Shown here: piece after piece, positions 19,650 to 25,370 of the stretch | Layout: every line of letters begins with the position of its first letter | Numbering within the stretch: the first letter of the stretch is position 1 | Assembly (NCBI GenBank): GCA_963590525.1 | Contig: CAVAPV010000002.1 | Location: 15,181-77,636 of the forward strand | Length of the DNA: 62,456 nucleotides | Direction: 5' to 3' | Source: Agathobacter rectalis | GTDB lineage: Bacteria > Actinomycetota > Coriobacteriia > Coriobacteriales > QAMH01 | Translations under genes and position numbers: made by a program | Notes under the pieces: generated by a model | Told to the model about the DNA's origin: nothing | Database searches by the model: none | What the model saw: the letters and a program-made list of their open reading frames with translations, nothing else

Positions 19650-19885
19650 TGAGAAAACTCCATTCAAATTAACCCTGCACCCTTTGTGCAGGCGCTTATT
19701 TGAGACCTTGCGTGTGGTGACGGGCCACACAGCAGCTCAATATGATACATCAACTCATACGGCTTGCGTAGAAGGTATTGCAAGGTTTTCAAGCATATCT
19801 GCCACCTGTTTTGACATCTTGGATAAACAAGCAAAATGGCAAAGCCGTATTCACGAGCTGCAAGAGCCAGATCGCGTCTCTTTGC

Positions 19886-19921
19886 AAGCAAAAGGGGCAG
19901 AAAGCCCGATGCCCCTGCCCC
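19886..19921 (-). terminator. Rho-independent terminator after proS
   Basis: Minus strand GGGGCAG-(14 nt)-CTGCCCC followed by TTTTGCTTGC, about 25 nt after the proS stop. Confidence 0.7.
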
Positions 19922-19946
19922 GTTTGAGATGACCTGTTGTCAAGCA

Positions 19947-21686
19947 CTACAGGCTTGTGGTTTTGGCCTCGCACTCCTTGCGCGCATCCAAAACAGCAGC
20001 GACGATGCGCTCTACAGCTTGGTCGACACCAAGCTCCTCCTTGGTGTTTGCCGCACGGTCCTTGAACTCGACGACGCCGCCAGCAGCGCCCTTCTTGCCC
20101 ACGACCAGCTGGAAGGGCCAGCCCACGAGGTCTGCATCGGCAAATTTGATGCCTGCGCGCTCCTTGCGGTCGTCGATGGCGACCTCGATACCAGCACAGC
20201 TCAGCTCGCAAGCCAGCTTGTTTGCCAGCGGCTCGACCAAGTCGTCGCCCTTGATAAGCGGCAGCACCACGACCTCTGCCGGGGCGATGCTCACCGGCCA
20301 GCCAGCGATACCGCTCTCATCGTTGCGCTGCTCGACCACAGCCGCCATAGAACGCGTGACGCCGATGCCATAGCAACCCATGATAAAGGGCTTCTCTTTT
20401 CCGTTTTCGTCCATGAAGGTGGCCCCCATGGCTTGGGAGTACTTGGTACCCAGCTTGAACACCTGGGAAACCTCGATGCCGCGATTGCCTGCCAGGGGCT
20501 TGCCGCACTTGGGGCAAGCATCACCGGGCTTGGCCAGACACAGGTCTGCGTATTGCTCGACGTCAAAATCACGACCGAGCTTGGCTCCCAGATAATGGAA
20601 GCCGTCCTCGTTGGCGCCAACCGTCCAGGTGGTCATACCCTGCAAAGAAACATCGGCAAAGACCTTGGCACCGCTAGGCAGGCCCACCGGGCCCATGGAG
20701 CCTTTGACCAAGCCGCGCTCTATCATCTCTTCGTCTGTGAACAAGCGCCAGCCTTTAACCAAAGCCTCGATCTTGATCTCATTGAGCTCGTGGTCGCCGG
20801 GGATGAAGAGCACGTAGGTCTCGCCGTCGTCTCCCGTACCGCTCAAGGCCTTGGCCAAAGAGTTTGCAGGCACGTCCAAGAAGGAAGCCAGCTCGTCGAT
20901 GGTATGGACGTTTGGCGTGGCGATCTTCTCAAGCTCACAATCCGGATTATCCGTGCAAGCGATGCCGGCAGCCGAGGCCTCTGCGTCGGCCGCATAACCG
21001 CAGGCGCAATGGAGCAAGTCGCTTTCGCCGGCATCTGCAATAGCCATGAACTCGCAGGTCTCGCTGCCACCGATCTGGCCGCTATCGGCCTCGACCATGC
21101 AGTACTCCATGCCAAGACGCTCGCACACACGTGCATAAGCCACGCTCATCGTCTTGTAGCGCTCGTCCAAGCTTTCCTCATCTGCAGAGAAGCTGTAAGC
21201 GTCCTTCATGATGAACTCGCGCGTGCGCAGCAGGCCAAAGCGGGGGCGGCGCTCATCACGGTACTTATCTTGCATCTGGTAAAGCGTCACGGGAAGCTCT
21301 TTGTAAGAGCGCAACTCGTTGCGCACAAGATCGGTTATGAGCTCCTCGTGCGTGGGGCCGAGGCAGTACTCGACGTCGTGGCGGTCTTTGACGCGCATCA
21401 TCTCGGGGCCGTAGGCGTCCCAGCGGCCAGACTCGTGCCACAGCTCGGCCGGCTGAAGCATGGGCATGAGCACCTCTTGGCAACCCGCAGCTTCCATCTC
21501 CTCGCGGATAATCTGCTCGATCTTGCCCAAGACCTTGCGACCCAAAGGCAAAAACGTGTACATGCCGCTGCCGTTCTTGCGGATCATGCCTGCACGCAAA
21601 AGCAGCTTGTGGCTGGCGATCTCTGCGTCGGAAGGATCCTCTTTGAGCGTGGGAGCGTAGGTGAGGCTAAGCTTCATGATCGACAT
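19947..21686 (-). CDS. proS: Proline--tRNA ligase (bacterial type with INS editing domain)
   Basis: 579 aa. Class II motifs, YKELPVTLYQMQDKYRDERRPRFGLLRTREF. Confidence 0.95.
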   Translation of the reverse strand: MSIMKLSLTYAPTLKEDPSDAEIASHKLLLRAGMIRKNGSGMYTFLPLGRKVLGKIEQIIREEMEAAGCQEVLMPMLQPAELWHESGRWDAYGPEMMRVKDRHDVEYCLGPTHEELITDLVRNELRSYKELPVTLYQMQDKYRDERRPRFGLLRTREFIMKDAYSFSADEESLDERYKTMSVAYARVCERLGMEYCMVEADSGQIGGSETCEFMAIADAGESDLLHCACGYAADAEASAAGIACTDNPDCELEKIATPNVHTIDELASFLDVPANSLAKALSGTGDDGETYVLFIPGDHELNEIKIEALVKGWRLFTDEEMIERGLVKGSMGPVGLPSGAKVFADVSLQGMTTWTVGANEDGFHYLGAKLGRDFDVEQYADLCLAKPGDACPKCGKPLAGNRGIEVSQVFKLGTKYSQAMGATFMDENGKEKPFIMGCYGIGVTRSMAAVVEQRNDESGIAGWPVSIAPAEVVVLPLIKGDDLVEPLANKLACELSCAGIEVAIDDRKERAGIKFADADLVGWPFQLVVGKKGAAGGVVEFKDRAANTKEELGVDQAVERIVAAVLDARKECEAKTTSL

Positions 21687-21695
21687 GGGCTACCC

Positions 21696-23483
21696 CTACA
21701 GATCCAGGCTCAAGGAGACTTCCTTGAGCTGACGACGCGTGACGGCTGCCGGCGCGCCGGTCATGGCATCGGAGCCAGAAGAGGTCTTGGGGAAGGCGAT
21801 GACGTCGCGGATAGAGTCAAAGCCGCCGATGAGCATGACGAGGCGATCGAGACCCAAGGCGATGCCGCCATGAGGGGGCGCGCCAAAGCCCAAGGCCTTG
21901 ACGAGGAAGCCAAACTGCTCGTCGATCTCCTCATCGGACATGCCGATGCGCTTGAGGATGCGGCGCTGCAGCTCGGCAGTGTGGATACGCACGGTGCCGC
22001 CACCGACTTCGAAGCCGTCCATGACCAAGTCGTAGGAGTAGCTGCCGCATGCCATGGGGTCGTCCTCGATCTTGTCGAGGTCCTCGTCGCGCACACGGGT
22101 AAACGGATGGTGCTCTGCGACGTAGCGCTTCTCGTCTTCGTCGTAATGGAACATCGGGAAGTTGACGACCCAGTGCATGTCATGTTTGCCGGCGGGGATG
22201 AGGTCGAGCTTTTTGGCCATATGAAGCCTGATCACGCCCAAGACCTCGTTGACGACAGAGGCGCTGTCGGCGCCAAACATCACCAAGTCGCCGGCCTCGA
22301 TGTTCAAGGCGGCCTTCATGGCCTCGATCTCATCGTCGGTGAAGAACTTGAGGATGGGGCTTGTGACAGAACCGTCGCCGCGATAGGCGATCCAAGCCAT
22401 GCCCTTGGCGCCGGCCTTGACAGCAAGCTCGCCGATCTTGTCGATCTGAGCGCGCGGCATATCGCCTGCGCCCTTGGCGTTGATGGCCTTGACGACGCCG
22501 CCGCTTGCAAGCGCGCTGCTAAAGACCTTGAAGCCGCAGTCAGAGACGATGTCGCTCAAGTCGACGAGCTCCATGCCAAAGCGGCGGTCAGGGCGGTCGA
22601 TACCGTAGGTGCTCATCGCATCGGCATACTGAACGCGGTCAAGCGGGAAGGTGATATCGGTGATACCGACCTCTTCCAAGACCTCGGCCATGACGTCTTC
22701 CATCATCTGCATGACGTCGTCTTCGGTGATGTAGGACATCTCGATATCGATCTGAGTGAACTCGGGCTGGCGATCGGCGCGCAGATCCTCGTCGCGGAAG
22801 CACTTGGCAACCTGGTAGTAGCGCTCCATGCCACCCACCATGAGCAGCTGCTTGAACAGCTGGGGAGACTGCGGCAGGGCATAGAAGTCGCCAGCGCTCA
22901 GGCGCGAGGGAACGATGAAGTCACGTGCGCCCTCGGGGGTGGACTTGCCCAAGATGGGGGTTTCGACCTCGGTGAAACCACGCTTGTGCAAAGCGCTGCG
23001 CAGCGACCAAGTCACCGTGTCGCGCAGGCGCAAAGCGCCAGCGACCTCAGGCCGGCGGATATCGAGATAGCGCCACTTCATGCGCGTGAGCTCATCGGTC
23101 TCCACACCGTCTTCCAACGGGAACGGGGGCGTGGCAGACTCGTTGAGGATGACGCACTCCGTCACGACAACCTCTACCTCGCCGGTGGGCAGGTTGGGGT
23201 TAGCGGTGTCTTCGGGGCGCATGCGCACAAAGCCGGTGATCTTGATGGACCACTCGGGGCGCATCTTCTCGCCCAAGGTAAAGCATTCCTTTGCGTGATC
23301 GGGGTCGAAGACGCACTGAGTGATTCCGGCGCGGTCGCGCAGGTCCACAAAGATGAGTCCGCCATGATCGCGGCGCTTGCCAACCCAACCGCAAAGCGTG
23401 ACCGTCGAATCGACGTCTGCTGCAGTGAGCTGACCGCAAGTGTGGGAATGCATGGAATATGCGTTGAGAAAATCAGTAGGCAC
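21696..23483 (-). CDS. aspS: Aspartate--tRNA ligase
   Basis: 595 aa. OB-fold N-terminus, FYALPQSPQLFKQLLM, GGGTVRIH, bacterial GAD insertion. GTG start with GGAGG 7 nt upstream. Confidence 0.95.
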   Translation of the reverse strand: MPTDFLNAYSMHSHTCGQLTAADVDSTVTLCGWVGKRRDHGGLIFVDLRDRAGITQCVFDPDHAKECFTLGEKMRPEWSIKITGFVRMRPEDTANPNLPTGEVEVVVTECVILNESATPPFPLEDGVETDELTRMKWRYLDIRRPEVAGALRLRDTVTWSLRSALHKRGFTEVETPILGKSTPEGARDFIVPSRLSAGDFYALPQSPQLFKQLLMVGGMERYYQVAKCFRDEDLRADRQPEFTQIDIEMSYITEDDVMQMMEDVMAEVLEEVGITDITFPLDRVQYADAMSTYGIDRPDRRFGMELVDLSDIVSDCGFKVFSSALASGGVVKAINAKGAGDMPRAQIDKIGELAVKAGAKGMAWIAYRGDGSVTSPILKFFTDDEIEAMKAALNIEAGDLVMFGADSASVVNEVLGVIRLHMAKKLDLIPAGKHDMHWVVNFPMFHYDEDEKRYVAEHHPFTRVRDEDLDKIEDDPMACGSYSYDLVMDGFEVGGGTVRIHTAELQRRILKRIGMSDEEIDEQFGFLVKALGFGAPPHGGIALGLDRLVMLIGGFDSIRDVIAFPKTSSGSDAMTGAPAAVTRRQLKEVSLSLDL

Positions 23484-23508
23484 TGTATGCCCTCCTCAGA
23501 TCTTGGGG

Positions 23509-23883
23509 CTAAACCATAGACTGTGGCCCGCCCATCCAATAAAAACACGTCCTTATAGGATACCCCCTGTTACGCTGATAAAGACGCAAAACTTGATGGT
23601 TCTGCAACGTTAGAGAGCACCGCAACGGCATGCAAGCCAAAGTAAACAGCAACAAGGGACAAGCAACCTGCATAAGAAAAAAGGGCCCCTCTTGGGAGCC
23701 CTCCGTGCCAAAGTCTTTGCGCCATGCGTTTTTTGCCTTGGCGCGGTTGTATTTGGCATCGCCGTGCTTGCCGTATCCGCAAGCAAAGCCGTTGTAGCGC
23801 GGTTTTTTGACTTGCCACACCAGACGGCCATCGATAACGAGCGGGCCGTTTTTTGCGACATGCTGTCGCTTTTTCTTAGCCAT
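23509..23883 (-). CDS. Small, very basic ArfA/BrfA-like protein; the formal ORF runs through an internal intrinsic terminator, so the functional product is probably about 66-69 aa made from a non-stop mRNA
   Basis: ATG at 23883 with a strong SD (GGAGGTGAGGAT-ATG). Sequence: MAKKKRQHVAKNGPLVIDGRLVWQVKKPRYNGFACGYGKHGDAKYNRAKAKNAWRKDFGTEGSQEGPFF.... There is no in-frame stop until 23509, yet the terminator lies at 23674-23702. Confidence 0.6.
   Translation of the reverse strand: MAKKKRQHVAKNGPLVIDGRLVWQVKKPRYNGFACGYGKHGDAKYNRAKAKNAWRKDFGTEGSQEGPFFLMQVACPLLLFTLACMPLRCSLTLQNHQVLRLYQRNRGYPIRTCFYWMGGPQSMV
23674..23702 (-). terminator. Rho-independent terminator located inside the small ORF reading frame
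   Basis: Minus strand AGGGCUCC-caaga-GGGGCCCU (8 bp including one G:U) followed by UUUUUUCUU. It covers the codons for EGSQEGPFFL. Confidence 0.8.
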
Positions 23884-23985
23884 ATCCTCACCTCCCCTGC
23901 TACACAGTGCCGCTAGGGCCAAGCAGAATATAGCCAAAGGTCGCAAGCAAAAAGACGCGCCGCTTGCGCAACCGCGAGGCGCTGC

Positions 23986-25299
23986 TTAAGCAAGCATGCG
24001 TGCAACAGCCGATGCAACGTCTTTGACAGAGACAAGGGTCTCCTCATGCGTTGCAAAGTCGCGAATCTTGACATCACCTTTTGCAAGCTCGTCAGGCCCG
24101 ACGACGACGGCGAGGGCGGCACCGCTTTTGCCAGCGACTTTGAACTGGCTTTTGAGGCTTCTTCCTTGCGTGTCAGACAGCGCGGCCACACCGGCATCGC
24201 GCAGCTGCTGCAAGACGGTAAAGGCTTGGGGGCGCACAGATTCATCCACGCAGGCAACGTAGACGCTTGAGGGAGCGCCGGGGTCCAAACTGATACCTTG
24301 AGCCTCCAAGGCCAGCATGATGCGCTCGAAGCCAACGGCAAAACCCAAGCCCGGCAAATCCTTGTCTCCTACCTCGCCCATGAGCCCATCGTAGCGGCCA
24401 CCGCCACCTATGGCGCTTTGCGAGCCTAGGCCTTCTGTCACCTGGACCTCGAAGACAGTGCCGGTGTAGTAGTCGAAGCCTCGGACCAGGCGCGGGTCTT
24501 CCACAAAGGTGATGTTGGCGGCGGCAAGGTAGGCCTTGACCTGCTCATGGCGGGCAAGGCAATCATCGCACAGATGATCGCTAAAACGAGGGGCACCTTC
24601 CATAACCTCAAAGCACGCGGGGTTCTTGCAGTCAAAAGCGCGCAACGGGTTGGTCTGGATACGGCGGCGGCACTCCTCGCACAGCTCGTCTTCATGATCG
24701 GCCATATAGGACTTGACGGCCTGCGTGTAGGCAGGACGGCACTTGTCGTCGCCCATCGAGTTGATAAGCAGCCTCATGGACTGGGGTTTGATACCCAGCG
24801 CCTCAAAGAAACGCATGCACATGATGATCATCTCTGCATCCGCCGAGGCATCTGTTGCCCCCAAGCACTCGACACCCACTTGGTGGAACTGCCTCAAACG
24901 CCCTTTTTGTGGTCGCTCGCACCTGAACATGGGACCAGCGTAGAAGAGCTTTGCCGGAGCCGCACCCTGAGGCACGAGGTTGTGCTCGGCGATGGCGCGC
25001 ACAACGCTTGCCGTACCCTCTGGCCTCAAAGCGAGCTTTTGATCGGATTTGAGGGCAGCTCCCTCTTTGAGGCTTGCCACCGCTCCCACAGAAAACACCG
25101 AGAAGATCTCTTTAGTGGCAGCGTCGCAGGTCTCGCCGCAACCGCGCAAGAAGAGCTCCGATTTCTCAAACGTAGGGGTCTCGATGGGCTCGTACCCATA
25201 GAGAGTAAAGATTTCACGTGCTTTGGCAGTAAACGCATCCCAAGCGCGTGCCTGCGGCGGAAGCAGGTCCTGTGTTCCCTTTGGTGCTTTGTAAGCCAT
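23986..25299 (-). CDS. hisS: Histidine--tRNA ligase
   Basis: MAYKAPKGTQDLLPP... from the ATG at 25299. Class II motifs, FRCERPQKGRLRQFHQ, GGGGRYDGL. Confidence 0.95.
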   Translation of the reverse strand: MAYKAPKGTQDLLPPQARAWDAFTAKAREIFTLYGYEPIETPTFEKSELFLRGCGETCDAATKEIFSVFSVGAVASLKEGAALKSDQKLALRPEGTASVVRAIAEHNLVPQGAAPAKLFYAGPMFRCERPQKGRLRQFHQVGVECLGATDASADAEMIIMCMRFFEALGIKPQSMRLLINSMGDDKCRPAYTQAVKSYMADHEDELCEECRRRIQTNPLRAFDCKNPACFEVMEGAPRFSDHLCDDCLARHEQVKAYLAAANITFVEDPRLVRGFDYYTGTVFEVQVTEGLGSQSAIGGGGRYDGLMGEVGDKDLPGLGFAVGFERIMLALEAQGISLDPGAPSSVYVACVDESVRPQAFTVLQQLRDAGVAALSDTQGRSLKSQFKVAGKSGAALAVVVGPDELAKGDVKIRDFATHEETLVSVKDVASAVARMLA

Positions 25300-25370
25300 G
25301 CTCTTTTGCCTCTCAAACAACAAGAGGCCCTCTCAGGCCTCTTGAAACTAGCAGGTATGACGCGAGAAAC

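Follow-up and report, generated by a model that had tools for sequence, protein, structure and literature searches.

Within a 62,456-nt stretch of a genome labelled Agathobacter rectalis (contig CAVAPV010000002.1, positions 15,181 to 77,636; hereafter the window), we describe an unannotated small gene on the minus strand, at 23883..23509 between hisS and aspS, whose open reading frame (ORF) runs through an intrinsic terminator before it meets any stop codon. The gene belongs to a conserved family, and we regard it as very probable that it has a non-stop design gated by transfer-messenger RNA (tmRNA), a reading that is well supported. By analogy with known systems, the best explanation seems to us to be a non-stop gene for a back-up ribosome rescue factor that depends on a release factor (RF), a function to which we give slightly better than an even chance.

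Ribosomes that reach the end of an mRNA lacking a stop codon are acted on by tmRNA-SmpB, which tags their product for proteolysis. ArfA and BrfA are both small and basic; they recognise such ribosomes by the empty mRNA channel and recruit RF2. To our knowledge, RF-dependent back-up rescue factors come from only three unrelated small-protein families; these were discovered through genetic screening, in proteobacteria and in Bacillus. The brfA gene has a rho-independent terminator in its ORF, expresses 62 of its 71 codons, is repressed by trans-translation and encodes a protein that recruits RF2 (PMC6881298). The BrfA product was seen only when smpB had been deleted, and the regulation is lost when the terminator is mutated (PMC6881298). 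In arfA, too, a hairpin gives rise to a non-stop mRNA in a tmRNA-gated circuit, and more small RF-recruiting proteins are expected to await identification, having been missed by sequence similarity (PMC8012679).

Anatomy of the small gene

The small gene opens with an ATG at 23883-23881, directly preceded by GGGGAGGTGAGGAT. Its very strong Shine-Dalgarno (SD) sequence GGAGGTGAGG (23886..23895, minus strand) lies 2 nt 5' of the ATG, and translation begins MAKKKRQHVAKNGPLVIDGRLVWQVKKPRYNGFACGYGKHGDAKYNRAKAKNAWRKDFGTEGSQEGPFFL. Codons 1-59 (23705..23883, minus strand) form the coding core, delimited by family alignments and codon-position entropy. Codons 60-70 are made up of a hairpin and a T-tract: the hairpin (GGAGGGCUCC / CAAGA / GGGGCCCUUU) covers codons 60-68 (23680..23704, minus strand), the T-tract TTTTTTCTT covers codons 68-70 (23674..23682, minus strand), and UUUCUU follows the stem, to 23674. 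A terminator scan gives the stem 10 pairs, and the predicted RNA fold has this single hairpin as its centroid structure, with -16.2 kcal/mol. The frame stays open for 124 codons, to a TAG at 23511-23509. An earlier sequence-only reading of the window, made without database searches, had pointed to this ATG downstream of hisS with an excellent SD, to a canonical rho-independent terminator in codons 60-70 and to a frame without a stop until 23509, hence to a stop-less terminated transcript; the sequence, the terminator scan and the fold bear out each of these features.

From this arrangement, the 3' end of the transcript is expected in the T-tract, which would leave an mRNA without a stop codon. 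Codons 71-124 and the TAG (23509..23673, minus strand) form an open tail that differs across homologues and would be absent from the terminated transcript. A long open tail by itself is unremarkable in a 58% GC genome.

A family of small genes in Coriobacteriia

An indexed search gave 20 relatives of the small protein, an exhaustive HMMER search 173 representative clusters at 50% identity, and a family profile search 637 clusters at 90% identity. The name given to family members is "hypothetical protein" in every source. Scanning one genome per GTDB species with the family alignment yielded 80 loci, while the single window protein as query gave no match in the same scan. Nearly all of these loci are in Coriobacteriia, chiefly in Eggerthellaceae, with Slackia, Adlercreutzia, Eggerthella-labelled metagenome-assembled genomes (MAGs), Enterorhabdus, Ellagibacter and Cryptobacterium among the carriers, and the window itself comes from a Coriobacteriia-like genome, as the sequence-only reading had surmised. 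Our comparisons of hairpins and stops use 78 distinct loci, and the SD count uses 79.

One member with the full non-stop design lies on a contig labelled Oribacterium sp. (L066, 2966-3200; 41.5% GC) among ordinary chromosomal neighbours (URO-D, YqeY, PIN and TrkA), so the design is not strictly confined to Coriobacteriia. Four "cleanbin" contigs (L023, L037, L043 and L079), labelled Bacteroidaceae, Prevotella sp. CAG:279 or Eubacterium sp. CAG:786, carry an Eggerthellaceae-type gene at 58-65% GC and look like mis-binned Coriobacteriia contigs. In one MAG (JAFUBE01, Eggerthellaceae RGIG4335), two copies of the gene are found on different contigs (L070 and L075).

The window protein has 0 Pfam matches and no NCBIfam match even at E<=10, and scans of this protein and 70 members against Pfam, NCBIfam, PHROGs and PADLOC returned scattered noise only. 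The family profile, compared with all PDB chain sequences, gave two noise matches at E about 0.8, to a pyruvate dehydrogenase E2 component.

The in-ORF terminator and the missing stop

A GC-rich stable hairpin is present in 78/78 distinct loci, beginning 91-102 nt downstream of the PRYNG Pro codon. The 40-nt window that contains the hairpin folds with a median free energy of -19.9 kcal/mol, compared with -10.5 for control windows taken from within the same coding sequence, and 98.7% of hairpin windows reach -12 kcal/mol or below, against 34% of control windows. In 70 of 78 loci the hairpin is directly followed by 8 nt with at least 5 T; a control stretch shows this in 0 of 78. The stems are lineage-specific (GGAGCC/GGCTCC, GGGACC/GGTCCC, GAGACCCGC/GCGGGTCTC, AGGCGCTCGC/GCGAGCGCCT and AGAGGGCCTC/GAGGCCCTCT), and the consensus stem that RNAalifold derives from 33 diverse members has 11 pairs, 9 of them with compensatory double changes. 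Pairing holds in 94.5% of the alignment cells of the stem, compared with 83.2% after column shuffling (0/500). The covariation score of 0.459 falls to 0.245 in the shuffles (0/500), and sliding the 3' arm by 1-3 columns lowers pairing to 44-67%. This covariation indicates that the hairpin is under structural selection, and the non-stop design seen in the window is conserved with it across the family.

No in-frame stop precedes the hairpin in any of the 78 loci; the first one comes 13 to 1144 nt beyond the end of the stem, or 44 to 423 codons after the motif. A sequencing error or local indel as the cause of the missing stop can be rejected, since the design recurs in 78/78 distinct loci. Beyond the hairpin, the tails vary in length and sequence across all homologues, from a few to hundreds of residues. 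In P0002, whose protein is 89% identical to that of the window, the sequence after the T-tract is read in another reading frame of the same DNA; because the frame changes past the T-tract, the tail is not under protein selection. The alignments show the two traits that mark the ArfA/BrfA design, an ORF that runs through an intrinsic terminator in its homologues as well and an unconserved, apparently dispensable sequence after the hairpin. Comparative genomics had been suggested as a check on whether the N-terminal core and the hairpin are conserved and the later sequence is not, and this pattern is what we find in 78 distinct loci.

Alternatively, the hairpin could be an inefficient terminator or an RNA-processing site, with the protein made from read-through transcripts and the lack of an early stop tolerated rather than selected. 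The weak T-tracts of 8/78 loci would suit this idea, as would the few loci in which the stop comes only 13-17 nt beyond the stem. A functional protein, however, would hardly tolerate tails of a few to more than 380 codons that are unconserved and change frame between close relatives. Moreover, a stop between core and hairpin is missing from 78/78 loci though one point mutation would suffice to create it, and the relatives that have a stop have lost the hairpin. We therefore consider this alternative improbable and retain termination within the ORF as the working model.

The encoded protein

In the core, entropy over the three codon positions is 0.52/0.55/1.28, and 76 of 79 distinct loci carry GGAGG no more than 18 nt 5' of the start, the near-invariant consensus being AAGGAGGTGAGG. 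Judged from these alignments, the core is clearly protein-coding and under purifying selection, and the family is real. The codon-position pattern and the conserved SD also led us to reject a noncoding RNA in place of a protein.

The core consists of a basic N-terminus and an invariant block, W23..P28-x-Y-N-G..C35-G-x-G38-x-H40-G41..K44..R47, within the alignment pattern W..(K)P-R/K-Y/F-N-G/A-x-A-C-G-x-G-x-H-G-D-x-K-Y-N-R-x-K-x-K-R-x-W; His-Gly (H40, G41) is invariant or nearly so. About ten variable residues follow, then "E-G-x-x-x-G-x-F-x-F", then the dissimilar tails. At the DNA level, the "EGxxxGxF" segment is a translated terminator. In the N-terminal half, the subgroup of the window (PLVIDxRxVWQ) is closer to phage-type members than to the main Eggerthellaceae type (VWxxSAEEATL).

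The predicted product has ~68-70 residues and an isoelectric point (pI) of about 10.3, the family median being 10.5, and a GGQ motif is found in 0/70 members. An AlphaFold2 (AF2) model has two short helices (19-26 and 47-61) and no compact fold, at a predicted local distance difference test score (pLDDT) of 71 and a predicted template modelling score (pTM) of 0.29; the second helix corresponds to the basic KYNRAKAKRAW region. Foldseek found nothing in the PDB with this low-confidence model. With about 70 aa, a basic character, no GGQ and little fixed fold, the predicted product fits the known RF-dependent factors.

Proposed mechanism

Starting from the gene anatomy, the coding selection on the core, the structural selection on the hairpin and the lack of an earlier stop, all indicated by sequence comparison, we propose a mechanism for the small gene. 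Transcription would end in the T-tract (~23680-23674) before any stop, and translating ribosomes would stall at the 3' end of the mRNA. As long as trans-translation works, tmRNA-SmpB would tag the ~68-70-residue product for degradation. Because its product is tagged by tmRNA-SmpB, a stop-less gene of this kind would be silent whenever trans-translation can take on more load, and expressed once it cannot. With tmRNA saturated or missing, the highly basic protein would escape tagging and accumulate. By analogy with ArfA and BrfA, it would then most likely bind ribosomes with an empty mRNA channel and recruit a class-I release factor, which would free the peptide. The gene would thus encode a tmRNA-gated back-up rescue factor of Coriobacteriia that evolved independently of ArfA, BrfA and ArfT.

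In a wider form of this proposal, Coriobacteriia and at least one low-GC Firmicutes-like lineage would possess an independently evolved tmRNA-gated, RF-dependent rescue factor whose stop-bearing relatives are carried by phages; we hold this tentatively, at a little under an even chance.

Comparison with known rescue factors

With BrfA (YqkK, B. subtilis; 6SZS is a BrfA complex, PMC12829566) the small gene shares the in-ORF rho-independent terminator, about 68-70 of 124 codons being predicted to be expressed here against 62 of 71 there. Further shared traits are a dispensable tail after the terminator, a basic protein without GGQ, a narrow phylogenetic range and a stand-alone gene. It differs from BrfA in belonging to another phylum and in having no detected sequence similarity. 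The basic segment of BrfA is also its extreme C-terminus, whereas here the last ~10 residues are encoded by the hairpin (EG..G.FF) and the basic helix lies upstream. ArfA (E. coli; beta/gamma-proteobacteria) likewise comes from a non-stop mRNA made by an in-ORF hairpin and is repressed by tmRNA; it is active only as a C-terminally truncated form, has about 55-72 aa, is basic and lacks structure when not bound to the ribosome. The hairpin of E. coli arfA is mainly an RNase III site, whereas that of the small gene is a canonical terminator followed by a T-tract.

ArfT (Francisella tularensis) is likewise small and charged and brings release factors to non-stop ribosomes, and it is not described as encoded by a non-stop mRNA, which is also the case for the stop-bearing minority of our family (PMC6514570). 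The ArfT-like family has 1 to 8 copies of a charged helix repeat (PMC6514570), of which none is evident here when compared by description. ArfB (YaeJ) and SmpB sense the empty channel through a basic, partly helical C-terminal segment, and the AF2 model here has a basic helix at 47-61. In contrast to the members found here, ArfB carries a GGQ hydrolase domain of its own, whereas SmpB has a folded structure of the oligonucleotide/oligosaccharide-binding (OB) type and works with tmRNA. The literature searched, up to 2026, lists only ArfA, ArfB, ArfT, BrfA and PrfH as alternative rescue factors; the present family is unmentioned, and in agreement with the sequence-only reading no rescue factor of this kind is described there for Coriobacteriia.

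Several observations weigh against assigning a rescue function to the family. The sequence-only reading had proposed a resemblance to ArfA, and this did not survive comparison: hhalign of the family profile with E. coli ArfA (a query verified as identical to PDB 5H5U) gave a probability of 0.24% over 9 columns (GYGKHGDAK versus RKGKHGNRG), and its suggested search with Pfam ArfA (PF03889) found no match in 70 members at E<=10. The Lys-His shared by ArfA and BrfA contacts U534 of 16S rRNA in the mRNA channel (PMC6881298). In our family, the residue before the invariant His is Lys in 5 of 161 representatives and mostly Ala, Val or Pro in the others; the pentapeptide GKHG(D/N) is, as it happens, common to ArfA and the window protein, and its Lys is absent from 97% of the family. 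BrfA, compared through libraries and the PDB rather than pairwise, gave no NCBIfam match in the window protein or the 70 members, and the family profile matched no ArfA or BrfA chain among all PDB sequences at E<=10. Against ArfB and SmpB, both with unverified query sequences, hhalign gave a probability of 0.13% and a negative result, respectively. In addition, the hairpin fixes the last residues of the predicted product (EG..G.FF), and these are non-basic, in contrast to the basic tails of ArfA and BrfA. A closely following ribosome could suppress the hairpin and allow read-through. Finally, termination in vivo, tmRNA tagging, ribosome binding and RF recruitment are inferred from the gene design. 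On these comparisons the family is not ArfA/BrfA-like by descent and can be no more than an analogue in function.

Relatives with an ordinary stop

A further point of the same kind is that roughly 19 of 163 representatives have an ordinary stop and no hairpin. Their stop lies 32-42 residues after the motif, near the expected start of the hairpin. Some of them are short (51-63 aa), low-GC and found in phage-like contigs, and these too count against a rescue function: L084 (3001-3177), whose neighbours match PHROG families, L085 (3001-3186; 30% GC) and L090 (4001-4156), on the 139.8-kb IMG/VR viral contig IMGVR_UViG_3300012344_000011. These three homologues have 51-61 aa, and their contigs are low-GC and densely packed, with the listed genes all on one strand; tblastn of a short stop-bearing homologue against annotated phages found no match. 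Two high-GC chromosomal members, L091 (2501-2740, ending …KDTGLV*) and L092 (1925-2110, ending …KDAGLL*), also stop at the position of the hairpin start, which means that the non-stop design was lost or never gained in some lineages.

Homologues with a normal stop upstream of the hairpin had been named beforehand as a sign of a local error here. A minority of relatives do have a normal stop, but it replaces the hairpin instead of preceding a retained one, and for this reason no sequencing error in the window is indicated. Together with the Oribacterium-labelled case, the stop-bearing relatives show that the ~55-aa core is the functional unit and the in-ORF terminator a regulatory add-on that has been gained or lost. 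They also mean that the activity of the protein is independent of the non-stop design and that its function may be useful to phages too, which again speaks against the proposed role.

The non-stop design and its gating might thus be real and the protein another small basic effector of the cell and some phages, binding nucleic acid or ribosomes. It could, for instance, be a factor that silences translation or one of the hibernation type, or else a signal of stress or abortive infection that is switched on when trans-translation is overwhelmed. The short stop-bearing homologues in low-GC phage-like contigs (L084 with its PHROG-positive neighbours, L090 in IMG/VR) favour such an effector, and so do the highly variable genomic positions, the one chromosomal copy that adjoins a HigB-type toxin gene and helix-turn-helix (HTH) genes, and the lack of similarity to any known rescue factor. 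On the other hand, the only characterised genes with an in-ORF terminator encode rescue factors (PMC6881298, PMC8012679), and the size, charge and lack of a stable fold of the protein match those factors. In our scans of the window protein and 70 members, moreover, no defence-system model matched and the PHROGs matches were weak. Another effector is accordingly rather unlikely in our judgement, though a serious candidate, and we continue to prefer an RF-dependent rescue factor.

Neighbouring genes and the aspS leader

The upstream gene hisS (25323..23986, minus strand) is followed by a terminator-like hairpin with a T-run (23947..23972, minus strand), detected by the terminator scan and kept in the syntenic relative L087, which separates the small gene from hisS. 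A TATATT at 23927..23932 (minus strand), identical in L087, is a candidate -10 hexamer and may be a promoter element of the small gene itself; a scan for the sigma-70 consensus gave no full promoter, and no -35 was recognised upstream of the small gene. On the 3' side, aspS starts with a GTG at 23483 on the minus strand. A 1227-aa open frame on the plus strand (19836-23519), antisense across proS and aspS, is a high-GC artefact and not a gene. Rfam gave no match on the whole window at gathering thresholds, and at permissive E-values on the locus only sub-threshold, terminator-like noise; ARAGORN found no tRNA or tmRNA in the window.

Two relatives, L087 and L088, share the gene order of the window, rpmB-hisS-X-aspS-proS, where X is the small gene. 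Their SD, coding sequence and hairpin align with those of the window, the sequence immediately beyond the T-tract has diverged and contains indels, and conservation resumes only in a ~95-nt block before aspS (window 23484-23575, minus strand). This block is almost invariant, while the coding sequence of the small gene varies at synonymous sites. Its predicted fold pairs the SD of aspS with an upstream U-rich segment, and it has no Rfam match; we regard it as a candidate regulatory leader of aspS.

Beyond these relatives, clustering of the flanking ORFs of all loci revealed no recurrent architecture. In Slackia faecicanis (L001), the gene sits between def and rpsO-pnp; elsewhere it is beside higB/HTH genes or an aldose epimerase gene, and the neighbours are often on the opposite strand. 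In L003 (4001-4912), which is of the Eggerthellaceae type, the tail ends in a stop that overlaps with the first codons of a gene for a HigB-like toxin. An HTH antitoxin-like gene comes next, and the terminator of the small gene sits upstream of this pair. No RF, ArfB or SmpB signature motifs were found in the flanks of the fetched loci. Since the neighbours are not conserved, the small gene is an autonomous unit and not the leader of a given gene.

This bears on another possible role of the hairpin: it could be a plain terminator, or act as leader or attenuator of the gene that follows (here aspS), with the ORF as a leader peptide that modulates read-through. The overlap of ORF and terminator would allow a translating ribosome to interfere with the hairpin, and in the window and its two syntenic relatives aspS with its strongly conserved leader does lie downstream. 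Yet the sequence from the terminator up to the aspS leader is not conserved, linkage to aspS is not seen in most genomes, and the flanking genes (rpsO-pnp, higB, aldose epimerase) differ in almost every species. Unlike a leader peptide, the ORF also has about 60 codons under purifying protein selection with invariant residues, and there are relatives with a stop and without the hairpin. Such a role is therefore very improbable, and a self-contained non-stop gene remains our reading of the locus.

Significance

The family is real, conserved and previously undescribed, and by analogy it is best filed as a putative, non-homologous member of the type formed by rescue factors on non-stop mRNAs. In this case, the gene architecture itself, a conserved ORF through a covarying terminator, flags a candidate family in a whole class of gut Actinobacteria that includes Eggerthellaceae such as Slackia and Adlercreutzia. 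If the proposed function is true, this would be a further family after ArfA, ArfT and BrfA, the first for Actinobacteria in the literature searched, and a third independent circuit in which a non-stop mRNA serves as a sensor of tmRNA capacity; the non-stop design could then be used as a general search key. It would also bear on the efficacy of trans-translation inhibitors against bacteria that carry the gene. The phage-borne relatives would further raise ribosome rescue as a phage function: Either a phage gene was domesticated as a cellular factor by means of non-stop control, or phages may bring their own rescue activity into the cells they infect.

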